Notes under the pieces: generated by a model | Database searches by the model: none | What the model was told of the DNA's origin: nothing | Seen by the model: only the letters and a program-made list of their open reading frames with translations | Made by a program: the position numbers and the translations under genes | Virus record (IMG/VR): IMGVR_UViG_2861074659_000002 | Length of the DNA stretch: 64,000 nt | Origin: a virus | Taxonomy: Duplodnaviria; Heunggongvirae; Uroviricota; Caudoviricetes | Strand: one strand, 5' to 3' | In this document: positions 5,158 to 52,915 of the stretch, piece by piece | Layout of the letters: each line of letters begins with the position of its first letter | Position numbering within the stretch: position 1 is the stretch's first letter

Positions 5158-5574
5158 TTATACCTCTGAATCAATATCAACCTGGTGGTGAGCAATGGTT
5201 TCAACCATGTACCGGATGTGTTCTGCCATGCGCTCCTGAAACTCAACATCGTCATCAAACGCACGGGTAATGGATTTTTTGCTGGCCCCGTGGCGTTGCA
5301 AATGATCGATGCATAGCGATTCAAACAGGTGCTGGGGCAGGCCTTTTTCCATGTCGTCTGCCAGTTCTGCCTCTTTCTCTTCACGGGCGAGCTGCTGGTA
5401 GTGACGCGCCCAGCTCTGAGCCTCAAGACGATCCTGAATGTAATAAGCGTTCATGGCTGAACTCCTGAAATAGCTGTGAAAATATCGCCCGCGAAATGCC
5501 GGGCTGATTAGGAAAACAGGAAAGGGGGTTAGTGAATGCTTTTGCTTGATCTCAGTTTCAGTATTAATATCCAT
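5158..5574 (-). CDS. gam: Gam RecBCD inhibitor (138 aa)
   Basis: [24 protein letters not shown]... matches lambda Gam. Confidence 0.95.
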
Positions 5575-7300: not shown

Positions 7301-7322
7301 TAAAAAAGGGGCGAAAGCCCCT
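7301..7322 (-). terminator. Rho-independent terminator hairpin downstream of cI (GGGGC-TTTC-GCCCC followed by T-run on minus strand)
   Basis: Perfect 5-bp stem with T6 tail read on minus strand immediately after cI stop. Confidence 0.5.
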
Positions 7323-7972
7323 TAAGGAAGGTTTGCTAGCTTGGCATCAACGACAACGCCAATGATTTTACAGTTCCCATTGATTTCAATCATTGGGTAT
7401 TGTGGATTGAGTGGTTTCAGGAATTTTCTACCGGCATCAATAACTAACTTTTTGAATGTCGCCTCGTTTTCTCCTTCAAGTTTGGCGACTACCAGCTTTC
7501 CATTACGTGGTTCGACTTCTGGGTCGACGAGAATAATCATCCCCTCAGGAATACTCAGTCCTGCCGGGGCAGTCATTGAATCGCCTTTAACGTCGAGCCA
7601 AAAAGAGTCTTCAGAACAATCTACCGTTGTGTCGTACCAGTTATCTATTGCACGCCTATGATATGGCTCTACAGCTTCCATCCAACATCCTGCGCTTACC
7701 CAACTAATTAGAGGATACGAACCTCTTGGATCATGCCTGCTGTGATAGGCAATGTTTGAAAGACTATCCTCTCCTTTCAACAGGTAATCAGGGGAGCACT
7801 GCAAAGCCTTGGCTAAGGCCAATAGGTTTTCGCCATTGGGCTCAGTTTCAGATCGCTCCCATTGGGAAATAGCAACATTAGACACGCCAACCATCTTGCC
7901 AAGGGCAGCCTGCCTAATCTTGAGTTCTTTTCTGCGAGCGCGAATACGCTCACCCATCAGTTGTGTATTCAT
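7322..7972 (-). CDS. cI: CI-type repressor (216 aa), P22 c2 / phage 21 family, HTH N-domain plus LexA-like S24 autocleavage domain
   Basis: MNTQLMGERIRARRKELKIRQAALGKMVGVSNVAISQWERSE...GDSM...NGNCKIIGVVVDAKLANLP; intact in copy 1. Confidence 0.9.
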   Translation of the reverse strand: MNTQLMGERIRARRKELKIRQAALGKMVGVSNVAISQWERSETEPNGENLLALAKALQCSPDYLLKGEDSLSNIAYHSRHDPRGSYPLISWVSAGCWMEAVEPYHRRAIDNWYDTTVDCSEDSFWLDVKGDSMTAPAGLSIPEGMIILVDPEVEPRNGKLVVAKLEGENEATFKKLVIDAGRKFLKPLNPQYPMIEINGNCKIIGVVVDAKLANLP

Positions 7973-8052: not shown

Positions 8053-8237
8053 ATGTACAAAAAAGATGTTATTGACCACTTCGGAACCCAGCGTGCTGTT
8101 GCTAAGCACTAGGCATTAGCGATGCAGCAGTCTCTCAGTGGAAAGAAGTTATCCCAGAGAAAGACGCCTATCGATTGGAAATCGTTACAGCTGGCGCCCT
8201 GAAGTATCAAGAAAGTGCTTACCGCCAAGCGGCATAA
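8053..8237 (+). pseudogene. cro: Cro (P22 / phage 21 type) interrupted by a 1-bp deletion after codon 18 (AAA to AA), premature stop
   Basis: MYKKDVIDHFGTQRAVAKH* in copy 1 versus intact 61-aa ORF at 51392..51577 in copy 2. Confidence 0.8.
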
Positions 8238-8352: not shown

Positions 8353-8650
8353 ATGGCACAAGCAAGCTACAGCAAGCCAACACAGCGAGAAATTGATCGC
8401 GCTGAAACTGATTTACTCATCAACCTGTCAACGCTTACCCAGCGCGGTCTGGCAAAGATGATTGGCTGTCATGAATCGAGATAAGCAGAACGGACTGGAG
8501 ATTATTGCTTCGGTCTTGTGTGCTTTCGGAATGGCATCAGACATCAGTCCGATTAGCAGGGCTTTTAAGTATGCGCTTGATGGACTCACAAAGAAAAAAC
8601 GCCCGGTGTGCAAGACCGAGCGTTCTGAACAAATCCAGATGGAGTTCTGA
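8353..8650 (+). pseudogene. cII: CII-like activator, apparently split over three reading frames (N-terminal 43 codons, then C-terminal ...KKKRPVCKTERSEQIQMEF in another frame)
   Basis: N-terminus MAQASYSKPTQREIDRAETDLLINLSTLTQRGLAKMIGCHES resembles cII HTH region; C-terminus matches lambda CII tail; same in both copies. Confidence 0.55.
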
Positions 8651-8681
8651 GGTCATTACTGGATCTATCAACAGAGTCATT

Positions 8682-9576
8682 ATGACAAATACAGCAAAAT
8701 ACTCAACTTCGGCAGAGGTAACTTGCCGGACAGGAGCGTAATGTGGCAGATCTCGATGATGGTTACGCCAGACTATCAAATATGCTGCTTGAGGCTTATT
8801 CGGGCGCAGATCTGACCAAGCGACAGTTTAAAGTGCTGCTTGCCATTCTGCGTAAACCTATGGTGGAATAAACCAATGGACAGAATCACCGATTCTCAAC
8901 TTAGCGAGATTACAAAGTTACCTGTCAAACGGTGCAATGAAGCCAAGTTAGAACTCGTCAGAATGAATATTATCAAGCAGCAAGGCGGCATGTTTGGACC
9001 AAATAAAAACATCTCAGAATGGTGTATCCCTCAAACGAGGGGAAAATCCCCTAAACGAGGGATAAAACATCCCTCAAATTGGGGGATTGCTATCCCTCAA
9101 AACAGGGGGACACAAAAGACACTATTACAAAAGAAAAAAGAAAAGATTATTCGTCAGAGAATTCTGGCGAATCCTCTGACCAGCCAGAAAACGACCTTTC
9201 TGTGGTGAAACCGGATGCTGCAATTCAGAGCGGCAGCAAGTGGGGGACAGCAGAAGACCTGACCGCCGCAGAGTGGATGTTTGACATGGTGAAGACTATC
9301 GCACCATCAGCCAGAAAACCGAATTTTGCTGGGTGGGCTAACGATATCCGCCTGATGCGTGAACGTGACGGACGTAACCACCGCGACATGTGTGTGCTGT
9401 TCCGCTGGGCATGCCAGGACAACTTCTGGTCCGGTAACGTGCTGAGCCCGGCCAAACTCCGCGATAAGTGGACCCAACTCGAAATCAACCGTAACAAGCA
9501 ACAGGCAGGCGTGACAGCCAGCAAACCAAAACTCGACCTGACAAACACAGACTGGATTTACGGGGTGGATCTATGA
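8682..9576 (+). pseudogene. O: Replication initiator O, fragmented by several 1-nt indels in N-terminal region and iterons; C-terminal 165 aa domain intact
   Basis: MTNTAK then frame breaks; pieces ...NKPMDRITDSQLSEITKLPVKRCNEAKLELVRMNIIKQQGGMFGPNKNISEWCIPQ and CYPSKQGDTKDT...WIYGVDL match lambda O in different frames. Confidence 0.8.
9026..9150. promoter_or_regulatory. ori: Origin of replication (four O-binding iterons ATCCCTCAAA-CGAGGG type plus AT-rich region) embedded in O
   Basis: Four tandem ~18-20 bp inverted-repeat iterons followed by A-rich tract; iteron spacer lengths differ from what I recall for lambda. Confidence 0.7.
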
Positions 9577-10274
9577 AAAACATCGCCGCACAGATGGTTA
9601 ACTTTGACCGTGAGCAGATGCGTCGGATCGCCAACAACATGCCGGAACAGTACGACGAAAAGCCGCAGGTACAGCAGGTAGCGCAGATCATCAACGGTGT
9701 GTTCAGCCAGTTACTGGCAACTTTCCCGGCGAGCCTGGCTAACCGTGACCAGAACGAAGTGAACGAAATCCGTCGCCAGTGGGTTCTGGCTTTTCGGGAA
9801 AACGGGATCACCACGATGGAACAGGTTAACGCAGGAATGCGCGTAGCCCGTCGGCAGAATCGACCATTTCTGCCATCACCCGGGCAGTTTGTTGCATGGT
9901 GCCGGGAAGAAGCATCCGTTACCGCCGGACTGCCAAACGTCAGCGAGCTGGTTGATATGGTTTACGAGTATTGCCGGAAGCGAGGCCTGTATCCGGATGC
10001 GGAGTCTTATCCGTGGAAATCAAACGCGCACTACTGGCTGGTTACCAACCTGTATCAGAACATGCGGGCCAATGCGCTTACTGATGCGGAATTACGCCGT
10101 AAGGCCGCAGATGAGCTTGTCCATATGACTGCGAGAATTAACCGTGGTGAGGCGATCCCTGAACCAGTAAAACAACTTCCTGTCATGGGCGGTAGACCTC
10201 TAAATCGTGCACAGGCTCTGGCGAAGATCGCAGAAATCAAAGCTAAGTTCGGACTGAAAGGAGCAAGTGTATGA
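9573..10274 (+). CDS. P: Replication protein P (DnaB helicase loader, 233 aa)
   Basis: Full-length match to lambda P. Confidence 0.95.
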
Positions 10275-11074
10275 CGGGCAAAGAGGCAATTATTCATTAC
10301 CTGGGGACGCATAATAGCTTCTGTGCGCCGGACGTTGCCGCGCTAACAGGCGCAACAGTAACCAGCATAAATCAGGCCGCGGCTAAAATGGCACGGGCAG
10401 GTCTTCTGGTTATCGAAGGTAAGGTCTGGCGAACGGTGTATTACCGGTTTGCTACCAGGGAAGAACGGGAAGGAAAGATGAGCACGAACCTGATGAACAA
10501 ACTGGATACGATTGGATTCGACAACAAAAAAGACCTGCTTATCTCGGTGGGCGATTTGGTTGATCGTGGTGCAGAGAACGTTGAATGCCTGGAATTAATC
10601 ACATTCCCCTGGTTCAGAGCTGTACGTGGAAACCATGAGCAAATGATGATTGATGGCTTATCAGAGCGTGGAAACGTTAATCACTGGCTGCTTAATGGCG
10701 GTGGCTGGTTCTTTAATCTCGATTACGACAAAGAAATTCTGGCTAAAGCTCTTGCCCATAAAGCAGATGAACTTCCGTTAATCATCGAACTGGTGAGCAA
10801 AGATAAAAAATATGTTATCTGCCACGCCGATTATCCCTTTGACGAATACGAGTTTGGAAAGCCAGTTGATCATCAGCAGGTAATCTGGAACCGCGAACGA
10901 ATCAGCAACTCACAAAACGGGATCGTGAAAGAAATCAAAGGCGCGGACACGTTCATCTTTGGTCATACGCCAGCAGTGAAACCACTCAAGTTTGCCAACC
11001 AAATGTATATCGATACCGGCGCAGTGTTCTGCGGAAACCTAACATTGATTCAGGTACAGGGAGAAGGCGCATGA
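10271..11074 (+). CDS. Ren-NinI fusion created by nin5-type deletion; C-terminal part is Ser/Thr protein phosphatase (lambda PPase) with GDxVDRG and GNHE motifs
   Basis: N-terminus [27 protein letters not shown] (Ren) joined in frame to ...[36 protein letters not shown]...RGNHE (NinI/orf221). Confidence 0.85.
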
Positions 11075-20123: not shown

Positions 20124-21422
20124 TCTCCCGCATATTGCCAGCATGGCCTTTAATGAGCCGCTGATGCTTGAACCCGCCTATGCGCGGGTTTTCTTTTGTG
20201 CGCTTGCAGGCCAGCTTGGGATCAGCAGCCTGACGGATGCGGTGTCCGGCGACAGCCTGACTGCCCAGGAGGCACTCGCGACGCTGGCATTATCCGGTGA
20301 TGATGACGGACCACGACAGGCCCGCAGTTATCAGGTCATGAACGGCATCGCCGTGCTGCCGGTGTCCGGCACGCTGGTCAGCCGGACGCGGGCGCTGCAG
20401 CCGTACTCGGGGATGACCGGTTACAACGGCATTATCGCCCGTCTGCAACAGGCTGCCAGCGATCCGATGGTGGACGGCATTCTGCTCGATATGGACACGC
20501 CCGGCGGGATGGTGGCGGGGGCATTTGACTGCGCTGACATCATCGCCCGTGTGCGTGACATAAAACCGGTATGGGCGCTTGCCAACGACATGAACTGCAG
20601 TGCAGGTCAGTTGCTTGCCAGTGCCGCCTCCCGGCGTCTGGTCACGCAGACCGCCCGGACAGGCTCCATCGGCGTCATGATGGCTCACAGTAATTACGGT
20701 GCTGCGCTGGAGAAACAGGGTGTGGAAATCACGCTGATTTACAGCGGCAGCCATAAGGTGGATGGCAACCCCTACAGCCATCTTCCGGATGACGTCCGGG
20801 AGACACTGCAGTCCCGGATGGACGCAACCCGCCAGATGTTTGCGCAGAAGGTGTCGGCATATACCGGCCTGTCCGTGCAGGTTGTGCTGGATACCGAGGC
20901 TGCAGTGTACAGCGGTCAGGAGGCCATTGATGCCGGACTGGCTGATGAACTTGTTAACAGCACCGATGCGATCACCGTCATGCGTGATGCACTGGATGCA
21001 CGTAAATCCCGTCTCTCAGGAGGGCGAATGACCAAAGAGACTCAATCAACAACTGTTTCAGCCACTGCTTCGCAGGCTGACGTTACTGACGTGGTGCCAG
21101 CGACGGAGGGCGAGAACGCCAGCGCGGCGCAGCCGGACGTGAACGCGCAGATCACCGCAGCGGTTGCGGCAGAAAACAGCCGCATTATGGGGATCTCAAC
21201 TGTGAGGAGGCTCACGGACGCGAAGAACAGGCACGCGTGCTGGCAGAAACCCCCGGTATGACCGTGAAAACGGCCCGCCGCATTCTGGCCGCAGCACCAC
21301 AGAGTGCACAGGCGCGCAGTGACACTGCGCTGGATCGTCTGATGCAGGGGGCACCGGCACCGCTGGCTGCAGGTAACCCGGCATCTGATGCCGTTAACGA
21401 TTTGCTGAACACACCAGTGTAA
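20104..21422 (+). pseudogene. C: Prohead protease C with nested scaffold Nu3; frameshifted by 1-bp deletion at 21191..21196
   Basis: GTG start at 20104; after ...AENSRIMGI the frame ends at 21261 while the C/Nu3 C-terminus (LAETPGMTVKTARRILAAAP...DLLNTPV) continues in another frame to 21422. Confidence 0.8.
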
Positions 21423-21431
21423 GGGATGTTT

Positions 21432-21764
21432 ATGACGAGCAAAGAAACCTTTACCCATTACCAGCCGCAGGGCAACAGTGACCCGGCTCATACCGCAACC
21501 GCGCCCGGCGGATTGAGTGCGAAAGCGCCTGCAATGACCCCGCTGATGCTGGACACCTCCAGCCGTAAGCTGGTTGCGTGGGATGGCACCACCGACGGTG
21601 CTGCCGTTGGCATTCTTGCGGTTGCTGCTGACCAGACCAGCACCACGCTGACGTTCTACAAGTCCGGCACGTTCCGTTATGAGGATGTGCTCTGGCCGGA
21701 GGCTGCCAGCGACGAGACGAAAAAACGGACCGCGTTTGCCGGAACGGCAATCAGCATCGTTTAA
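21432..21764 (+). CDS. D: Head decoration protein D (110 aa)
   Basis: [52 protein letters not shown]... Confidence 0.95.
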
Positions 21765-21819
21765 CTTTACCCTTCATCACTAAAGGCCGCCTGTGCGGCT
21801 TTTTTTACGGGATTTTTTT

Positions 21820-22845
21820 ATGTCGATGTACACAACCGCCCAACTGCTGGCGGCAAATGAGCAGAAATTTAAGTTTGATCCGCTGTTTCTGCGTCTCTTT
21901 TTCCGTGAGAGCTATCCCTTCACCACGGAGAAAGTCTATCTCTCACAAATTCCGGGACTGGTAAACATGGCGCTGTACGTTTCGCCGATTGTTTCCGGTG
22001 AGGTTATCCGTTCCCGTGGCGGCTCCACCTCTGAATTTACGCCGGGATATGTCAAGCCGAAGCATGAAGTGAATCCGCAGATGACCCTGCGTCGCCTGCC
22101 GGATGAAGATCCGCAGAATCTGGCGGACCCGGCTTACCGCCGCCGTCGCATCATCATGCAGAACATGCGTGACGAAGAGCTGGCCATTGCTCAGGTCGAA
22201 GAGATGCAGGCAGTTTCTGCCGTGCTTAAGGGCAAATACACCATGACCGGTGAAGCCTTCGATCCGGTTGAGGTGGATATGGGCCGCAGTGAGGAGAATA
22301 ACATCACGCAGTCCGGCGGCACGGAGTGGAGCAAGCGTGACAAGTCCACGTATGACCCGACCGACGATATCGAAGCCTACGCGCTGAACGCCAGCGGTGT
22401 GGTGAATATCATCGTGTTCGATCCGAAAGGCTGGGCGCTGTTCCGTTCCTTCAAAGCCGTCAAGGAGAAGCTGGATACCCGTCGTGGCTCTAATTCCGAG
22501 CTGGAGACAGCGGTGAAAGACCTGGGCAAAGCGGTGTCCTATAAGGGGATGTATGGCGATGTGGCCATCGTCGTGTATTCCGGACAGTACGTGGAAAACG
22601 GCGTCAAAAAGAACTTCCTGCCGGACAACACGATGGTGCTGGGGAACACTCAGGCACGCGGTCTGCGCACCTATGGCTGCATTCAGGATGCGGACGCACA
22701 GCGCGAAGGCATTAACGCCTCTGCCCGTTACCCGAAAAACTGGGTGACCACCGGCGATCCGGCGCGTGAGTTCACCATGATTCAGTCAGCACCGCTGATG
22801 CTGCTGGCTGACCCTGATGAGTTCGTGTCCGTACAACTGGCGTAA
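21820..22845 (+). CDS. E: Major capsid protein E (341 aa)
   Basis: MSMYTTAQLLAANEQKFKFDPLFLRLFFRESYPFTTEKVYLSQIPGLVNMALYVSPIVSGEVIRSRGGSTSEF... Confidence 0.95.
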   Translation: MSMYTTAQLLAANEQKFKFDPLFLRLFFRESYPFTTEKVYLSQIPGLVNMALYVSPIVSGEVIRSRGGSTSEFTPGYVKPKHEVNPQMTLRRLPDEDPQNLADPAYRRRRIIMQNMRDEELAIAQVEEMQAVSAVLKGKYTMTGEAFDPVEVDMGRSEENNITQSGGTEWSKRDKSTYDPTDDIEAYALNASGVVNIIVFDPKGWALFRSFKAVKEKLDTRRGSNSELETAVKDLGKAVSYKGMYGDVAIVVYSGQYVENGVKKNFLPDNTMVLGNTQARGLRTYGCIQDADAQREGINASARYPKNWVTTGDPAREFTMIQSAPLMLLADPDEFVSVQLA

Positions 22846-22886
22846 TCATGGCCCTTCGGGGCCATTGTTTCTCTGTGGAGGAGTCC

Positions 22887-23285
22887 ATGACGAAAGATGA
22901 ACTGATTGCCCGTCTCCGCTCGCTGGGTGAACAACTGAACCGTGATGTCAGCCTGACGGGGACGAAAGAAGAACTGGCGCTCCGTGTGGCAGAGCTGAAA
23001 GAGGAGCTTGATGACACGGATGAAACTGCCGGTCAGGACACCCCTCTCAGCCGGGAAAATGTGCTGACCGGACATGAAAATGAGGTGGGATCAGCGCAGC
23101 CGGATACCGTGATTCTGGATACGTCTGAACTGGTCACGGTCGTGGCACTGGTGAAGCTGCATACTGATGCACTTCACGCCACGCGGGATGAACCTGTGGC
23201 ATTTGTGCTGCCGGGAACGGCGTTTCGTGTCTCTGCCGGTGTGGCAGCCGAAATGACAGAGCGCGGCCTGGCCAGAATGCAATAA
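22887..23285 (+). CDS. FI: DNA packaging protein FI (132 aa)
   Basis: MTKDELIARLRSLGEQLNRDVSLTGTKEELALRVAELKEE... Confidence 0.9.
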   Translation: MTKDELIARLRSLGEQLNRDVSLTGTKEELALRVAELKEELDDTDETAGQDTPLSRENVLTGHENEVGSAQPDTVILDTSELVTVVALVKLHTDALHATRDEPVAFVLPGTAFRVSAGVAAEMTERGLARMQ

Positions 23286-23296
23286 CGGGAGGCGCT

Positions 23297-23650
23297 GTGG
23301 CTGATTTCGATAACCTGTTCGATGCTGCCATTGCCCGCGCCGATGAAACGATACGCGGGTACATGGGAACGTCAGCCACCATTACATCCGGTGAGCAGTC
23401 AGGTGCGGTGATACGTGGTGTTTTTGATGACCCTGAAAATATCAGCTATGCCGGACAGGGCGTGCGCGTTGAAGGCTCCAGCCCGTCCCTGTTTGTCCGG
23501 ACTGATGAGGTGCGGCAGCTGCGGCGTGGAGACACGCTGACCATCGGTGAGGAAAATTTCTGGGTAGATCGGGTTTCGCCGGATGATGGCGGAAGTTGTC
23601 ATCTCTGGCTTGGACGGGGCGTACCGCCTGCCGTTAACCGTCGCCGCTGA
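23297..23650 (+). CDS. FII: Head-tail connector FII (117 aa)
   Basis: Matches lambda gpFII. Confidence 0.9.
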   Translation: MADFDNLFDAAIARADETIRGYMGTSATITSGEQSGAVIRGVFDDPENISYAGQGVRVEGSSPSLFVRTDEVRQLRRGDTLTIGEENFWVDRVSPDDGGSCHLWLGRGVPPAVNRRR

Positions 23651-23661
23651 AAGGGGGATGT

Positions 23662-24240
23662 ATGGCCATAAAAGGTCTTGAGCAGGCCGTTGAAAACCTC
23701 AGCCGTATCAGCAAAACGGCGGTGCCTGGTGCCGCCGCAATGGCCATTAACCGCGTTGCTTCATCCGCGATATCGCAGTCGGCGTCACAGGTTGCCCGTG
23801 AGACAAAGGTACGCCGGAAACTGGTAAAGGAAAGGGCCAGGCTGAAAAGGGCCACGGTCAAAAATCCGCAGGCCAGAATCAAAGTTAACCGGGGGGATTT
23901 GCCCGTAATCAAGCTGGGTAATGCGCGGGTTGTCCTTTCGCGCCGCAGGCGTCGTAAAAAGGGGCAGCGTTCATCCCTGAAAGGTGGCGGCAGCGTGCTT
24001 GTGGTGGGTAACCGTCGTATTCCCGGCGCGTTTATTCAGCAACTGAAAAATGGCCGGTGGCATGTCATGCAGCGTGTGGCTGGGAAAAACCGTTACCCCA
24101 TTGATGTGGTGAAAATCCCGATGGCGGTGCCGCTGACCACGGCGTTTAAACAAAATATTGAGCGGATACGGCGTGAACGTCTTCCGAAAGAGCTGGGCTA
24201 TGCGCTGCAGCATCAACTGAGGATGGTAATAAAGCGATGA
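23662..24240 (+). CDS. Z: Tail component Z (192 aa)
   Basis: Matches lambda gpZ. Confidence 0.9.
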   Translation: MAIKGLEQAVENLSRISKTAVPGAAAMAINRVASSAISQSASQVARETKVRRKLVKERARLKRATVKNPQARIKVNRGDLPVIKLGNARVVLSRRRRRKKGQRSSLKGGGSVLVVGNRRIPGAFIQQLKNGRWHVMQRVAGKNRYPIDVVKIPMAVPLTTAFKQNIERIRRERLPKELGYALQHQLRMVIKR

Positions 24241-24632
24241 AACATACTGAACTCCGTGCAGCCGTACTGGATGCACTGGAGAAGCATGACACCGGGGCGA
24301 CGTTTTTTGATGGTCGCCCCGCTGTTTTTGATGAGGCGGATTTTCCGGCAGTTGCCGTTTATCTCACCGGCGCTGAATACACGGGCGAAGAGCTGGACAG
24401 CGATACCTGGCAGGCGGAGCTGCATATCGAAGTTTTCCTGCCTGCTCAGGTGCCGGATTCAGAGCTGGATGCGTGGATGGAGTCCCGGATTTATCCGGTG
24501 ATGAGCGATATCCCGGCACTGTCAGATTTGATCACCAGTATGGTGGCCAGCGGCTATGACTACCGGCGCGACGATGATGCGGGCTTGTGGAGTTCAGCCG
24601 ATCTGACTTATGTCATTACCTATGAAATGTGA
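24237..24632 (+). CDS. U: Tail tube terminator U (131 aa)
   Basis: Matches lambda gpU. Confidence 0.9.
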
Positions 24633-24639
24633 GGACGCT

Positions 24640-38369: not shown

Positions 38370-39602
38370 TCAATTGTTCATAGTGTTTACATCACCGCCA
38401 ATTGCTTTTAAGACTGAACGCATGAAATATGGTTTTTCGTCATGTTTTGAGTCTGCTGTTGATATTTCTAAAGTCGGTTTTTTTTCTTCGTTTTCTCTAA
38501 CTATTTTCCATGAAATACATTTTTGATTATTATTTGAATCAATTCCAATTACCTGAAGTCTTTCATCTATAATTGGCATTGTATGTATTGGTTTATTGGA
38601 GTAGATGCTTGCTTTTCTGAGCCATAGCTCTGATATCCAAATGAAGCCATAGGCATTTGTTATTTTGGCTCTGTCAGCTGCATAACGCCAAAAAATATAT
38701 TTATCTGCTTGATCTTCAAATGTTGTATTGATTAAATCAATTGGATGGAATTGTTTATCATAAAAAATTAATGTTTGAATGTGATAACCGTCCTTTAAAA
38801 AAGTCGTTTCTGCAAGCTTGGCTGTATAGTCAACTAACTCTTCTGTCGAAGTGATATTTTTAGGCTTATCTACCAGTTTTAGACGCTCTTTAATATCTTC
38901 AGGAATTATTTTATTGTCATATTGTATCATGCTAAATGACAATTTGCTTATGGAGTAATCTTTTAATTTTAAATAAGTTATTCTCCTGGCTTCATCAAAT
39001 AAAGAGTCGAATGATGTTGGCGAAATCACATCGTCACCCATTGGATTGTTTATTTGTATGCCAAGAGAGTTACAGCAGTTATACATTCTGCCATAGATTA
39101 TAGCTAAGGCATGTAATAATTCGTAATCTTTTAGCGTATTAGCGACCCATCGTCTTTCTGATTTAATAATAGATGATTCAGTTAAATATGAAGGTAATTT
39201 CTTTTGTGCAAGTCTGACTAACTTTTTTATACCAATGTTTAACATACTTTCATTTGTAATAAACTCAATGTCATTTTCTTCAATGTAAGATGAAATAAGA
39301 GTAGCCTTTGCCTCGCTATACATTTCTAAATCGCCTTGTTTTTCTATCGTATTGCGAGAATTTTTAGCCCAAGCCATTAATGGATCATTTTTCCATTTTT
39401 CAATAACATTATTGTTATACCAAATGTCATATCCTATAATCTGGTTTTTGTTTTTTTGAATAATAAATGTTACTGTTCTTGCGGTTTGGAGGAATTGATT
39501 CAAATTCAAGCGAAATAATTCAGGGTCAAAATATGTATCAATGCAGCATTTGAGCAAGTGCGATAAATCTTTAAGTCTTCTTTCCCATGGTTTTTTAGTC
39601 AT
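38370..39602 (-). CDS. ea47: Ea47 accessory protein (410 aa from Met at 39602; ORF extends to 39629), function unknown
   Basis: Low-GC b-region ORF at lambda ea47 position. Confidence 0.7.
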   Translation of the reverse strand: MTKKPWERRLKDLSHLLKCCIDTYFDPELFRLNLNQFLQTARTVTFIIQKNKNQIIGYDIWYNNNVIEKWKNDPLMAWAKNSRNTIEKQGDLEMYSEAKATLISSYIEENDIEFITNESMLNIGIKKLVRLAQKKLPSYLTESSIIKSERRWVANTLKDYELLHALAIIYGRMYNCCNSLGIQINNPMGDDVISPTSFDSLFDEARRITYLKLKDYSISKLSFSMIQYDNKIIPEDIKERLKLVDKPKNITSTEELVDYTAKLAETTFLKDGYHIQTLIFYDKQFHPIDLINTTFEDQADKYIFWRYAADRAKITNAYGFIWISELWLRKASIYSNKPIHTMPIIDERLQVIGIDSNNNQKCISWKIVRENEEKKPTLEISTADSKHDEKPYFMRSVLKAIGGDVNTMNN

Positions 39603-40192
39603 AAAACTCTCCATTTTGATAGGTTGCATGCTAGATGCTGATATATTTTAGAGGTGATAAAATTAACTGCTTAACTGTCAATGTAATACAAGTTGTTTGA
39701 TCTTTGCAATGATTCTTATCAGAAACCATATAGTAAATTAGTTACACAGGAAATTTTTAATATTATTATTATCATTCATTATGTATTAAAATTAGAGTTG
39801 TGGCTTGGCTCTGCTAACACGTTGCTCATAGGAGATATGGTAGAGCCGCAGACACGTCGTATGCAGGAACGTGCTGCGGCTGGCTGGTGAACTTCCGATA
39901 GTGCGGGTGTTGAATGATTTCCAGTTGCTACCGATTTTACATATTTTTTGCATGAGAGAATTTGTACCACCTCCCACCGACCATCTATGACTGTACGCCA
40001 CTGTCCCTAGGACTGCTATGTGCCGGAGCGGACATTACAAACGTCCTTCTCGGTGCATGCCACTGTTGCCAATGACCTGCCTAGGAATTGGTTAGCAAGT
40101 TACTACCGGATTTTGTAAAAACAGCCCTCCTCATATAAAAAGTATTCGTTCACTTCCGATAAGCGTCGTAATTTTCTATCTTTCATCATATT

Positions 40193-41083
40193 CTAGATCC
40201 CTCTGAAAAAATCTTCCGAGTTTGCTAGGCACTGATACATAACTCTTTTCCAATAATTGGGGAAGTCATTCAAATCTATAATAGGTTTCAGATTTGCTTC
40301 AATAAATTCTGACTGTAGCTGCTGAAACGTTGCGGTTGAACTATATTTCCTTATAACTTTTACGAAAGAGTTTCTTTGAGTAATCACTTCACTCAAGTGC
40401 TTCCCTGCCTCCAAACGATACCTGTTAGCAATATTTAATAGCTTGAAATGATGAAGAGCTCTGTGTTTGTCTTCCTGCCTCCAGTTCGCCGGGCATTCAA
40501 CATAAAAACTGATAGCACCCGGAGTTCCGGAAACGAAATTTGCATATACCCATTGCTCACGAAAAAAAATGTCCTTGTCGATATAGGGATGAATCGCTTG
40601 GTGTACCTCATCTACTGCGAAAACTTGACCTTTCTCTCCCATATTGCAGTCGCGGCACGATGGAACTAAATTAATAGGCATCACCGAAAATTCAGGATAA
40701 TGTGCAATAGGAAGAAAATGATCTATATTTTTTGTCTGTCCTATATCACCACAAAATGGACATTTTTCACCTGATGAAACAAGCATGTCATCGTAATATG
40801 TTCTAGCGGGTTTGTTTTTATCTCGGAGATTATTTTCATAAAGCTTTTCTAATTTAACCTTTGTCAGGTTACCAACTACTAAGGTTGTAGGCTCAAGAGG
40901 GTGTGTCCTGTCGTAGGTAAATAACTGACCTGTCGAGCTTAATATTCTATATTGTTGTTCTTTCTGCAAAAAAGTGGGGAAGTGAGTAATGAAATTATTT
41001 CTAACATTTATCTGCATCATACCTTCCGAGCATTTATTAAGCATTTCGCTATAAGTTCTCGCTGGAAGAGGTAGTTTTTTCAT
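40193..41083 (-). CDS. ea31: Ea31 accessory protein (296 aa) with HNH-type nuclease motif
   Basis: CPFCGD...IDHFLPIAHYPEFSVMPINLVPSCRDCNMGEKG resembles HNH endonuclease (Cys pairs flanking His-Asn-His-like core); 4-nt overlap with ea59. Confidence 0.75.
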   Translation of the reverse strand: MKKLPLPARTYSEMLNKCSEGMMQINVRNNFITHFPTFLQKEQQYRILSSTGQLFTYDRTHPLEPTTLVVGNLTKVKLEKLYENNLRDKNKPARTYYDDMLVSSGEKCPFCGDIGQTKNIDHFLPIAHYPEFSVMPINLVPSCRDCNMGEKGQVFAVDEVHQAIHPYIDKDIFFREQWVYANFVSGTPGAISFYVECPANWRQEDKHRALHHFKLLNIANRYRLEAGKHLSEVITQRNSFVKVIRKYSSTATFQQLQSEFIEANLKPIIDLNDFPNYWKRVMYQCLANSEDFFRGI

Positions 41084-42657
41084 TGTACTTTACCTTCATC
41101 TCTGTTCATTATCATCGCTTTTAAAACGGTTCGACCTTCTAATCCTATCTGACCATTATAATTTTTTAGAATGGTTTCATAAGAAAGCTCTGAATCAACG
41201 GACTGCGATAATAAGTGGTGGTATCCAGAATTTGTCACTTCAAGTAAAAACACCTCACGAGTTAAAACACCTAAGTTCTCACCGAATGTCTCAATATCCG
41301 GACGGATAATATTTATTGCTTCTCTTGACCGTAGGACTTTCCACACGCAGGATTTTGGAACCTCTTGCAGTACTACTGGGGAATGAGTTGCAATTATTGC
41401 TACACCATTGCGTGCATCGAGTAAGTCGCTTAATGTTCGTAAAAAAGCAGAGAGCAAAGGTGGATGCAGATGAACCTCTGGTTCATCGAATAAAACTAAT
41501 GACTTTTCGCCAACGACATCTACTAATCTTGTGATAGTAAATAAAACAATTGCATGTCCAGAGCTCATTCGAAGCAGATATTTCTGGATATTGTCATAAA
41601 ACAATTTAGTGAATTTATCATCGTCCACTTGAATCTGTGGTTCATTACGTCTTAACTCTTCATATTTAGAAATGAGGCTGATGAGTTCCATATTTGAAAA
41701 GTTTTCATCACTACTTAGTTTTTTGATAGCTTCAAGCCAGAGTTGTCTTTTTCTATCTACTCTCATACAACCAATAAATGCTGAAATGAATTCTAAGCGG
41801 AGATCGCCTAGTGATTTTAAACTATTGCTGGCAGCATTCTTGAGTCCAATATAAAAGTATTGTGTACCTTTTGCTGGGTCAGGTTGTTCTTTAGGAGGAG
41901 TAAAAGGATCAAATGCACTAAACGAAACTGAAACAAGCGATCGAAAATATCCCTTTGGGATTCTTGACTCGATAAGTCTATTATTTTCAGAGAAAAAATA
42001 TTCATTGTTTTCTGGGTTGGTGATTGCACCAATCATTCCATTCAAAATTGTTGTTTTACCACACCCATTCCGCCCGATAAAAGCATGAATGTTCGTGCTG
42101 GGCATAGAATTAACCGTCACCTCAAAAGGTATAGTTAAATCACTGAATCCGGGAGCACTTTTTCTATTAAATGAAAAGTGGAAATCTGACAATTCTGGCA
42201 AACCATTTAACACACGTGCGAACTGTCCATGAATTTCTGAAAGAGTTACCCCTCTAAGTAATGAGGTGTTAAGGACGCTTTCATTTTCAATGTCGGCTAA
42301 TCGATTTGGCCATACTACTAAATCCTGAATAGCTTTAAGAAGGTTATGTTTAAAACCATCGCTTAATTTGCTGAGATTAACATAGTAGTCAATGCTTTCA
42401 CCTAAGGAAAAAAACATTTCAGGGAGTTGACTGAATTTTTTATCTATTAATGAATAAGTGCTTACTTCTTCTTTTTGACCTACAAAACCAATTTTAACAT
42501 TTCCGATATCGCATTTTTCACCATGCTCATCAAAGACAGTAAGATAAAACATTGTAACAAAGGAATAGTCATTCCAACCATCTGCTCGTAGGAATGCCTT
42601 ATTTTTTTCTACTGCAGGAATATACCCGCCTCTTTCAATAACACTAAACTCCAACAT
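41080..42657 (-). CDS. ea59: Ea59 accessory protein (525 aa), P-loop ATPase (ABC/AAA_21/OLD-like)
   Basis: Walker A GRNGCGKTT and Walker B-like LVLFDEPEVHLHP motifs. Confidence 0.75.
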   Translation of the reverse strand: MLEFSVIERGGYIPAVEKNKAFLRADGWNDYSFVTMFYLTVFDEHGEKCDIGNVKIGFVGQKEEVSTYSLIDKKFSQLPEMFFSLGESIDYYVNLSKLSDGFKHNLLKAIQDLVVWPNRLADIENESVLNTSLLRGVTLSEIHGQFARVLNGLPELSDFHFSFNRKSAPGFSDLTIPFEVTVNSMPSTNIHAFIGRNGCGKTTILNGMIGAITNPENNEYFFSENNRLIESRIPKGYFRSLVSVSFSAFDPFTPPKEQPDPAKGTQYFYIGLKNAASNSLKSLGDLRLEFISAFIGCMRVDRKRQLWLEAIKKLSSDENFSNMELISLISKYEELRRNEPQIQVDDDKFTKLFYDNIQKYLLRMSSGHAIVLFTITRLVDVVGEKSLVLFDEPEVHLHPPLLSAFLRTLSDLLDARNGVAIIATHSPVVLQEVPKSCVWKVLRSREAINIIRPDIETFGENLGVLTREVFLLEVTNSGYHHLLSQSVDSELSYETILKNYNGQIGLEGRTVLKAMIMNRDEGKVQ

Positions 42658-43259: not shown

Positions 43260-43500
43260 AATGCTCTGTTACAGGTCACTAATACCATCTAAGTAGTTGA
43301 TTCATAGTGACTGCATATGTTGTGTTTTACAGTATTATGTAGTCTGTTTTTTATGCAAAATCTAATTTAATATATTGATATTTATATCATTTTACGTTTC
43401 TCGTTCAGCTTTTTTATACTAAGTTGGCATTATAAAAAAGCATTGCTTATCAATTTGTTGCAACGAACAGGTCACTATCAGTCAAAATAAAATCATTATT
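43260..43500. other. attP: attP attachment site, common core GCTTTTTTATACTAA at 43408..43422, flanked by AT-rich arm sequences
   Basis: Exact lambda att core with phage sequence on both sides (b region left, int right). Confidence 0.9.
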
Positions 43501-44566
43501 TGATTTCAATTTTGTCCCACTCCCTGCCTCTGTCATCACGATACTGTGATGCCATGGTGTCCGACTTATGCCCGAGAAGATGTTGAGCAAACTTATCGCT
43601 TATCTGCTTCTCATAGAGTCTTGCAGACAAACTGCGCAACTCGTGAAAGGTAGGCGGATCCCCTTCGAAGGAAAGACCTGATGCTTTTCGTGCGCGCATA
43701 AAATACCTTGATACTGTGCCGGATGAAAGCGGTTCGCGACGAGTAGATGCAATTATGGTTTCTCCGCCAAGAATCTCTTTGCATTTATCAAGTGTTTCCT
43801 TCATTGATATTCCGAGAGCATCAATATGCAATGCTGTTGGGATGGCAATTTTTACGCCTGTTTTGCTTTGCTCGACATAAAGATATCCATCTACGATATC
43901 AGACCACTTCATTTCGCATAAATCACCAACTCGTTGCCCGGTAACAACAGCCAGTTCCATTGCAAGTCTGAGCCAACATGGTGATGATTCTGCTGCTTGA
44001 TAAATTTTCAGGTATTCGTCAGCCGTAAGTCTTGATCTCCTTACCTCTGATTTTGCTGCGCGAGTGGCAGCGACATGGTTTGTTGTTATATGGCCTTCAG
44101 CTATTGCCTCTCGGAATGCATCGCTCAGTGTTGATCTGATTAACTTGGCTGACGCCGCCTTGCCCTCGTCTATGTATCCATTGAGCATTGCCGCAATTTC
44201 TTTTGTGGTGATGTCTTCAAGTGGAGCATCAGGCAGACCCCTCCTTATTGCTTTAATTTTGCTCATGTAATTTATGAGTGTCTTCTGCTTGATTCCTCTG
44301 CTGGCCAGGATTTTTTCGTAGCGATCAAGCCATGAATGTAACGTAACGGAATTATCACTGTTGATTCTCGCTGTCAGAGGCTTGTGTTTGTGTCCTGAAA
44401 ATAACTCAATGTTGGCCTGTATAGCTTCAGTGATTGCGATTCGCCTGTCTCTGCCTAATCCAAACTCTTTACCCGTCCTTGGGTCCCTGTAGCAGTAATA
44501 TCCATTGTTTCTTATATAAAGGTTAGGGGGTAAATCCCGGCGCTCATGACTTCGCCTTCTTCCCAT
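43496..44566 (-). CDS. int: Integrase Int, full length (356 aa), tyrosine recombinase
   Basis: Ends ...HELRSLSARLYEKQISDKFAQHLLGHKSDTMASQYRDDRGREWDKIEIK with catalytic region present. Confidence 0.95.
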   Translation of the reverse strand: MGRRRSHERRDLPPNLYIRNNGYYCYRDPRTGKEFGLGRDRRIAITEAIQANIELFSGHKHKPLTARINSDNSVTLHSWLDRYEKILASRGIKQKTLINYMSKIKAIRRGLPDAPLEDITTKEIAAMLNGYIDEGKAASAKLIRSTLSDAFREAIAEGHITTNHVAATRAAKSEVRRSRLTADEYLKIYQAAESSPCWLRLAMELAVVTGQRVGDLCEMKWSDIVDGYLYVEQSKTGVKIAIPTALHIDALGISMKETLDKCKEILGGETIIASTRREPLSSGTVSRYFMRARKASGLSFEGDPPTFHELRSLSARLYEKQISDKFAQHLLGHKSDTMASQYRDDRGREWDKIEIK

Positions 44567-50663: not shown

Positions 50664-51311
50664 TTAAGGAAGGTTTGCTAGCTTGGCATCAACGACAACG
50701 CCAATGATTTTACAGTTCCCATTGATTTCAATCATTGGGTATTGTGGATTGAGTGGTTTCAGGAATTTTCTACCGGCATCAATAACTAACTTTTTGAATG
50801 TCGCCTCGTTTTCTCCTTCAAGTTTGGCGACTACCAGCTTTCCATTACGTGGTTCGACTTCTGGGTCGACGAGAATAATCATCCCCTCAGGAATACTCAG
50901 TCCTGCCGGGCAGTCATTGAATCGCCTTTAACGTCGAGCCAAAAAGAGTCTTCAGAACAATCTACCGTTGTGTCGTACCAGTTATCTATTGCACGCCTAT
51001 GATATGGCTCTACAGCTTCCATCCAACATCCTGCGCTTACCCAACTAATTAGAGGATACGAACCTCTTGGATCATGCCTGCTGTGATAGGCAATGTTTGA
51101 AAGACTATCCTCTCCTTTCAACAGGTAATCAGGGAGCACTGCAAAGCCTTGGCTAAGGCCAATAGGTTTCGCCATTGGGCTCAGTTTCAGATCGCTCCCA
51201 TTGGGAAATAGCAACATTAGACACGCCAACCATCTTGCCAAGGGCAGCCTGCCTAATCTTGAGTTCTTTTCTGCGAGCGCGAATACACTCACCCATCAGT
51301 TGTGTATTCAT
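50664..51311 (-). pseudogene. cI: cI repressor (copy 2) disrupted by three 1-bp homopolymer deletions plus one substitution
   Basis: Split into ORFs 50664..50882 and 50897..51292; deletions at about 50908 (GGGG to GGG), 51131 (GGGG to GGG), 51167 (TTTT to TTT) relative to copy 1. Confidence 0.85.
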
Positions 51312-51577: not shown

Positions 51578-51691
51578 GCAAATGCTCTTTAACAGTTCTG
51601 GCCTTTCACCTCTAACCGGGTGAGCAAACATCAGCGGCAAATCCATTGGGTGTGCCGCTATAACTCAATATCAATATAGGTAAATTAACAA

Positions 51692-52020: not shown

Positions 52021-52915
52021 ATGACAAATACAGCAAAATACTCAACTTCGGCAGAGGTAACTTGCCGGACAGGAGCGTAATGTGGCAGATCTCGATGATG
52101 GTTACGCCAGACTATCAAATATGCTGCTTGAGGCTTATTCGGGCGCAGATCTGACCAAGCGACAGTTTAAAGTGCTGCTTGCCATTCTGCGTAAACCTAT
52201 GGTGGAATAAACCAATGGACAGAATCACCGATTCTCAACTTAGCGAGATTACAAAGTTACCTGTCAAACGGTGCAATGAAGCCAAGTTAGAACTCGTCAG
52301 AATGAATATTATCAAGCAGCAAGGCGGCATGTTTGGACCAAATAAAAACATCTCAGAATGGTGTATCCCTCAAACGAGGGGAAAATCCCCTAAACGAGGG
52401 ATAAAACATCCCTCAAATTGGGGGATTGCTATCCCTCAAAACAGGGGGACACAAAAGACACTATTACAAAAGAAAAAAGAAAAGATTATTCGTCAGAGAA
52501 TTCTGGCGAATCCTCTGACCAGCCAGAAAACGACCTTTCTGTGGTGAAACCGGATGCTGCAATTCAGAGCGGCAGCAAGTGGGGGACAGCAGAAGACCTG
52601 ACCGCCGCAGAGTGGATGTTTGACATGGTGAAGACTATCGCACCATCAGCCAGAAAACCGAATTTTGCTGGGTGGGCTAACGATATCCGCCTGATGCGTG
52701 AACGTGACGGACGTAACCACCGCGACATGTGTGTGCTGTTCCGCTGGGCATGCCAGGACAACTTCTGGTCCGGTAACGTGCTGAGCCCGGCCAAACTCCG
52801 CGATAAGTGGACCCAACTCGAAATCAACCGTAACAAGCAACAGGCAGGCGTGACAGCCAGCAAACCAAAACTCGACCTGACAAACACAGACTGGATTTAC
52901 GGGGTGGATCTATGA
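52021..52915 (+). pseudogene. O: Replication protein O, fragmented (copy 2)
   Basis: Same ORF fragments as copy 1. Confidence 0.8.

Follow-up and report, generated by a model that had tools for sequence, protein, structure and literature searches.

Gene O and the replication origin of bacteriophage lambda (J02459/NC_001416), together with their counterparts in the prophage DE3 (EU078592), are the closest described relatives of the locus analyzed here. The O allele of lambda differs from the one carried by DE3, which is also the common allele in Escherichia coli, at a single silent position (39033). Loss of function in this region is well known from laboratory selections, and selection against lambda replicative killing gives O, P and ori mutants. 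Two other systems are relevant for comparison. Natural prophage decay, which produces the cryptic lambdoid prophages with interrupted replication and immunity genes, leaves substitutions, larger deletions and IS insertions across the prophage. Homopolymer consensus errors, on the other hand, belong to the sequence record, and are recognized as indel-only changes of one base that lie in runs, are biased towards deletion, reach a density of about 1%, break essential genes repeatedly and are absent from every independent record.

The DNA examined here is a window of 64,000 nucleotides (the whole stretch analyzed, IMG/VR record IMGVR_UViG_2861074659_000002) in which gene O is interrupted in each of two tandem prophages. 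Outside seven one-base changes, this O is identical to the DE3 and common E. coli allele. As in lambda, iterons 3 and 4, the AT-rich region, the C-terminal 173 residues of O and the overlapping gene P are all preserved without difference, whereas the Phage_rep_O domain is split, the ribosome-binding site lacks one G, iteron 1 is altered and iteron 2 is short. The locus resembles decaying cryptic prophages in that replication and immunity genes are interrupted within an integrated prophage, but it shows essentially no substitutions, large lesions or IS elements, and 55 kb of near-perfect lambda sequence surround the affected patch. With homopolymer consensus errors it shares every one of the features listed above; it differs from them in that the changes are held within a sharply bounded patch of 1-1.5 kb per copy, where the longest runs are mostly spared. 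Because of the spectrum of the changes, their clustering, the lack of support for them in other records and the exact restoration of O when they are corrected, the broken O is very probably an error of the sequence record, caused by a local low-quality or unpolished consensus, and not a property of the phage.

Two engineered prophages in tandem

The window does not contain wild-type lambda but two engineered lambda imm21 nin5 prophages of the D69/DE3 type arranged in tandem, with the first unit at 313-43654, the second at 43655-64000 and a period of 43,342 bp. From position 313 onward the sequence is collinear with DE3 (lambda imm21 nin5, D69 type) through gene J. Downstream of J it continues with the full lambda b region, the attP-type junction that joins the units (core GCTTTTTTATACTAA, 43408-43422) and an intact int gene identical to that of lambda (43496-44566), the second phage copy running from 43655. 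At the left end, bases 1-306 correspond to codons 1-102 of TEM-1 bla, the window starting exactly at the bla ATG. This truncated gene is followed, within 1-320, by the linker GGAATTCGGATCC (EcoRI/BamHI), whose other end meets the lambda BamHI site within int (lambda 27972). The fusion truncates the Int of copy 1 and creates chimeric open reading frames at 1-339 on the plus strand and 235-1224 on the minus strand; the bla'-int junction was absent from the complete E. coli genomes, genome_contigs, viral_contigs and phage records searched.

Copy 2 carries 58 substitutions relative to copy 1 between 46922 and 49709, in orf60a, exo, bet, gam, kil and ea10. Its alleles in this interval match phage 21 (OL657228) at 99.8%, and the encoded proteins are still full length. 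Judged by these alleles, copy 2 is a distinct hybrid of lambda and phage 21 and contains more DNA of phage 21 than copy 1 does. Duplication of a single phage during assembly was considered and rejected, since copy 2 has 58 sites with phage 21 alleles, an intact int and the attP junction. The tandem pair looks like an insert-bearing, int-negative phage next to an int-positive phage, and the latter may have served as helper; no usable literature was found on the vector or helper phages (lambda RZ5, lambda pir/D69, helper B10/B482). At the time the lysogen was made, both phages must presumably have been able to grow, and every lesion described below would therefore have arisen later, in laboratory time.

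Two further features of the backbone can be mentioned. The lambda EcoRI fragment 21226-26104 of the b region, deleted in DE3, is present at 36916-41787 and includes a BamHI site at 38030; therefore, the unit is not a plain D69/DE3 backbone. In addition, the nin5 deletion (10271-11074) fuses ren to the ninI phosphatase in a 267-aa open reading frame, as in the DE3 annotation of ren.

Gene O and the ori iterons

The sequence-only reading of this stretch had described an O gene that hops between frames, altered ori iterons and an intact C-terminal region of O followed by an intact P, and comparison with lambda and DE3 bore out all three observations. In copy 1, O occupies 8682-9576 on the plus strand (895 nt versus 900), opens with MTNTAK and meets its first stop at codon 20 of the ATG frame. 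It is separated from DE3 and lambda by seven one-base length changes, namely the loss of an A at 8695 (A5 to A4), a T at 8722 (T3 to T2), an A at 8856 (A4 to A3) and a G at 8861 (G3 to G2), followed by the loss of an A at 9035, the gain of a G at 9039 and the loss of an A at 9052. Copy 2 (52021-52915, plus strand) carries all seven as well, at positions 52034, 52061, 52195, 52200, 52374, 52378 and 52391. The residues of lambda O are scattered over several frames: frame 0 holds residues 1-6; frame 2 holds 6-14, 63-119 and 122-126; and frame 1 holds 16-59 and 127-299. As written, there is no single open reading frame of about 299 aa with an N-terminal Phage_rep_O domain (Pfam PF04492); the domain is split over two plus-strand fragments in different frames, one at 8743-8871 with profile positions 2-40 and the other at 8840-9208 with profile positions 43-95. 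The C-terminal part (residues 127-299) is contained in an open frame at 9079-9576 (plus strand) that is identical to lambda and is devoid of a proper start of its own. Upstream, the Shine-Dalgarno region of O (8668-8676, plus strand) has changed from AGGAG to AGAG by the loss of a G at 8673 in both copies. Gene P (9573-10274, plus strand), which overlaps the O stop codon (ATGA) as expected for a lambda-type O, is intact in both copies and encodes a protein of 233 aa identical to that of DE3.

Read literally, neither copy would be expected to produce O. A set of mutually compensating frameshifts yielding a functional protein was rejected, given that the net shift is -5 and that stops occur in every intermediate frame. 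Reverting the seven one-base changes restores a continuous 299-aa open reading frame equal to lambda O, with zero other nucleotide differences, which is the very outcome that the sequence-only reading had set against its own proposal of O-deficient prophages in need of O in trans. This restoration, together with the remaining evidence, makes a biological O deficiency unlikely, and errors in the record are the better explanation.

Among the four 18-bp iterons located within O, the first two are altered in the record. Iteron 1 (9026-9043, plus strand) reads ATCCCTCAAACGAGGGGA in the window versus ATCCCTCAAAACGAGGGA in lambda, with an A lost from an A4 run and a G gained in a G3 run, so that its length is kept and its sequence altered. 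Iteron 2 (9046-9062, plus strand; ATCCCCTAAACGAGGGA) has lost an A from an A4 run and measures 17 nt versus 18. Iterons 3 (9069-9086) and 4 (9092-9109), both on the plus strand, and the AT-rich region beside them are identical to lambda. Iterons 1 and 4 start with a shared 12-nt context, ATCCCTCAAAAC; in both copies it is contracted in the first of them, whereas the second, 66 nt downstream, keeps it whole. Errors determined by sequence context were rejected on these grounds, the same context having had different outcomes, and inspection by eye revealed no Dam or Dcm motif at the cluster sites. Because an identical context is contracted in one iteron and intact in the other, the process of error or mutation is bound to the region rather than to the local sequence.

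The identity of the affected elements brings to mind a selective origin, in which survivors of induction or replicative killing would have acquired O and ori mutations that recombination later transferred to the other prophage. For the loss of lambda replication, the expected targets are elements altered here, namely O, the ribosome-binding site in front of it and two iterons. One mutation is enough for this, however, and the lesions are redundant throughout: O has seven, cI three, cII two and the O ribosome-binding site one, when a single one would inactivate each gene, and those in cro, cII and cI would not be required at all. Moreover, classical ori-negative mutants are small deletions between iterons and not one-base run changes; P, an equally good target, is unaltered; and the cluster also includes the repressor gene of copy 2, whose loss favors induction and not survival. 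Selection fails as an explanation because a gene that is inactivated by one lesion does not need seven, three or two, and this scenario is regarded as extremely improbable.

Extent and spectrum of the indel cluster

The earlier impression that the lesions concentrate in O has to be replaced by that of a block of 1-1.5 kb extending from cI/cro to iteron 2. In copy 1, 11 one-base run-length changes and zero substitutions lie between 8103 and 9052, spanning cro, cII, the O ribosome-binding site, the O N-terminus and iterons 1-2. In copy 2, 14 one-base changes and one substitution (51287, in cI) lie between 50907 and 52391; this cluster spans cI too, but cro is intact. The cII gene, of phage 21 type (8353-8650, plus strand), has two 1-bp deletions (8478 and 8501) in both copies and stops at codon 44. 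The cro gene of copy 1, also of phage 21 type (8053-8237, plus strand), has lost an A at 8103, in this copy only. In copy 2, the imm21 repressor gene cI (50664-51311, minus strand) carries three 1-bp deletions (50907, 51131 and 51166) besides a G-to-A change at 51287, and a further 1-bp change is found just past cro, at 51582; the cI of copy 1 (7322-7972) is intact. Ten indels, from 8478 onward to the right, are common to both copies. The private ones lie to the left: copy 1 has one, in cro (8103), and copy 2 has four, of which three are in cI and one follows cro. The G-to-A change in the copy-2 cI, at the position equivalent to 7948 in copy 1, replaces Arg9 by Cys. Neither copy 1 nor DE3 nor phage 21 has it, and it may have arisen as a true clear-plaque mutation in a helper phage.

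Outside the two clusters the sequence is almost free of differences. In copy 1, 11 of the 14 indels fall within 958 bp of 36.6 kb, and in copy 2 all 14 fall within 1,496 bp of 20.4 kb (binomial probability of about 1e-15 in each case). The resulting densities are 11.5 and 9.4 indels per kb within the clusters, and 0.08 and 0 per kb beyond them. Where copy 1 is homologous to DE3 (36.6 kb), three indels and two substitutions lie beyond the cluster, and copy 2 shows no differences beyond its own except the phage 21 alleles. To the right of 9052, more than 11 kb follow without any difference from DE3 in both copies, and the 10-kb stretch comprising b, att and int contains three substitutions with respect to lambda and no indel. 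Expressed as an error rate, this represents about 1% inside the patch versus about 0.005% elsewhere, with approximately one difference per 18 kb in the remaining 55 kb of lambda sequence. Neutral decay fails as an explanation because of this hundred-fold local excess and because the b region, which is never needed by the phage, has zero indels in 10 kb. Nor is there the mixed spectrum, at a similar density across unselected DNA, that would be expected of a decayed prophage, the copy-1 cluster having no substitutions with respect to DE3.

The spectrum of the changes is uniform. All 15 distinct events add or remove one base in mononucleotide runs of 2-5 bases (14 losses and 1 gain), and bases in runs make up only 46% of the region (p of about 1e-5 for all events lying in runs). 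The proportion of altered runs is 3 of 223 for those of 2 bases, 5 of 61 for those of 3 and 6 of 9 for those of 4, and 1 of 5 for runs of 5-6 bases. Accordingly, the longest runs of the cluster are mostly intact, including both A6 runs and two of the three A5 runs. There is also a weak strand asymmetry, with 5 of 11 G runs of at least 3 bases altered versus 0 of 10 C runs.

This spectrum bears on the possibility that the lesions are real and man-made, introduced when the segment was reconstructed with synthetic or recombineered DNA containing single-base deletions from its synthesis. The window is clearly engineered, as attested by the bla fragment and linker fused to the BamHI site in int, and unverified oligonucleotide-built DNA contains deletion-dominated errors at about 1-10 per kb, a density similar to the one seen here. 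Synthesis deletions are nevertheless not limited to mononucleotide runs, yet every event here lies in one, and the same segment shows partly different events in the two copies. In addition, there is no design reason for resynthesizing the cI-ori segment of a vector phage, and a phage carrying such a segment could not be grown. A synthetic origin is therefore barely credible.

The distribution of shared and private events between the copies is relevant to a different proposal, according to which a local frameshift-prone process acted after lysogeny and gene conversion between the copies then homogenized everything rightward of about 8478. The process might have been error-prone repair synthesis that recurred many times, or slippage near ori or the repressor region, and both prophages would then be O-negative, ori-damaged and replicated only passively. 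A shared block accompanied by private events is what conversion followed by independent lesions would leave; the intact cI of copy 1 makes the written sequence compatible with a viable lysogen; and the dependence on run length up to 4-base runs would also suit polymerase slippage. This proposal has to face, however, the alteration of one context in iteron 1 and its integrity in iteron 4, the sparing of most of the longest runs, which are the most prone to slippage, and the fact that the changes are seen in none of more than 1,300 other genomes. It must also place about 10 frameshifts per kb over 1.5 kb beside 55 kb that are nearly unaltered, and we know of no process that introduces frameshifts at this density, with almost no substitutions, while leaving the adjacent 55 kb nearly untouched. 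Furthermore, since two different hybrids share ten identical indels and keep the private ones to the left, a recurring, region-tied error process fits better than shared descent. A post-lysogeny frameshift-prone process is accordingly judged improbable, and a real, localized, frameshift-only hypermutation acting on the cI-to-ori module independently in the two copies, with conversion spreading the damage, very improbable. Genuine lesions of some kind, whatever their origin, are unlikely. If they were real, they would point to a lysogen in which both prophages are unable to replicate, and to a previously unknown process that generates frameshifts in a sharply localized manner at a prophage origin.

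Search for the changes in independent sequences

A 241-nt query covering the O N-terminus (8660-8900) matched 1,824 homologous places, distributed over 1,360 complete E. coli genomes. At all of them the identity to the query is below 99%, and none shares the deletions. The best E. coli matches differ from it by exactly five gaps and no substitution, so the underlying O allele is the common one. O is likewise intact in all the DE3-type and phage 21 records examined. Exact searches with the mutated O starts (67 nt and 57 nt) gave no match in genome_contigs, viral_contigs or metagenome_contigs, and exact-protein look-ups with five window-specific products (the Int fusion, the bla' fusion, the truncated cII, the O fragment and the truncated J) gave no match either. 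In PLSDB, the plasmid that best matches the cluster region reaches only 94.8% identity. The idea that the segment had been stitched from an old, error-prone phage 21 record was rejected, as AJ237660 has intact cro, cII and O.

A probable local failure of the consensus

The preferred reading, a sequence-record error, would work as follows. Over about 1-1.5 kb of each tandem copy, from the imm21 repressor region to iteron 2, the quality of the consensus would be far below that of the remainder, and short runs of identical bases would have been miscounted by one inside this patch. A rate of about one error per 100 bases would match an unpolished or thinly covered long-read consensus, or one that is poor for other reasons, while the other 55 kb resemble polished sequence. 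The step responsible might be, as a guess, a gap in polishing coverage within the tandem repeat that was filled with draft sequence. Reads would be assignable to one copy near the distinguishing exo-bet alleles and pooled further off, and this could give rise to the mixture of private and shared events. Most likely, the true sequence is that of an ordinary DE3/lambda O and ori with four normal iterons.

Two properties expected of a consensus artefact are present, that is, the changes consist only of one-base run changes without linked substitutions (the one substitution being private and unrelated), and they are absent from independent sequences of the same element. A third is not, given that the errors are neither assembly-wide nor rising with run length but restricted to 958 and 1,496 bp, with runs of 5-6 bases altered in only 1 of 5 cases. 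The confinement to 1-1.5 kb can only be accommodated by also assuming that coverage or polishing was lost locally, and the integrity of most of the longest runs is atypical of the length dependence of flow-based or nanopore sequencing. It also counts against an artefact that the lysogen as written would still be viable, because the repressor gene of copy 1 is undamaged and passive replication maintains the prophages, so that biology would permit this sequence. In practical terms, a dense, indel-only cluster inside a repeat is a signature of a patch that escaped polishing, and the pseudogenes of O/ori, cII, cro and cI, and probably those of C, K and J, should not be used for biological interpretation or annotation.

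Isolated changes in late genes

Another early impression, that A, B, H and P were clean, held for P, which is intact, but not for the late genes overall, where C, K and J of copy 1 are frameshifted by isolated 1-bp deletions on the plus strand (at 21194, 30111 and 34222, respectively), which correspond to lambda positions 5509, 14426 and 18538. These three deletions are probably consensus errors as well. The one in gene C lies in a former BamHI site (lambda 5505), exactly where this site is polymorphic through engineering. At 21190-21196 the window reads GGATCTC, versus GGATACTC in DE3 and GGATCCTC in lambda and lambda imm21; the site itself is GGATAC in DE3, with an A, and GGATCC in lambda, with a C, and in the window it is GGATC, with the base dropped. 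The 21194 deletion is likely to be a consensus error at a position where the tandem phages truly differ. The deletion in gene J falls on nucleotide 3034 of the gene, the site of the classic A3034G host-range change. J also carries C2999T, a known host-range or adsorption mutation, and G3229T (window positions of the three J sites: 34188 for 2999, 34222 for 3034 and 34417 for 3229), and the J alleles seen here are not carried by any phage record searched. The J of this phage is probably of an extended-host-range type, with its true sequence masked at nucleotide 3034, where the deletion may hide an A3034G substitution. Both the 21194 and the 34222 deletions could have arisen either by the consensus dropping a base where the copies differ or by a substitution accompanied by a run contraction.

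Finally, a record outside the window came up in the comparisons. MW057783.1, which bears the name Campylobacter phage CJLB-4, matches lambda at 99.8% identity over a query of 11.5 kb; it seems to represent contamination with lambda control DNA and not a phage of Campylobacter.
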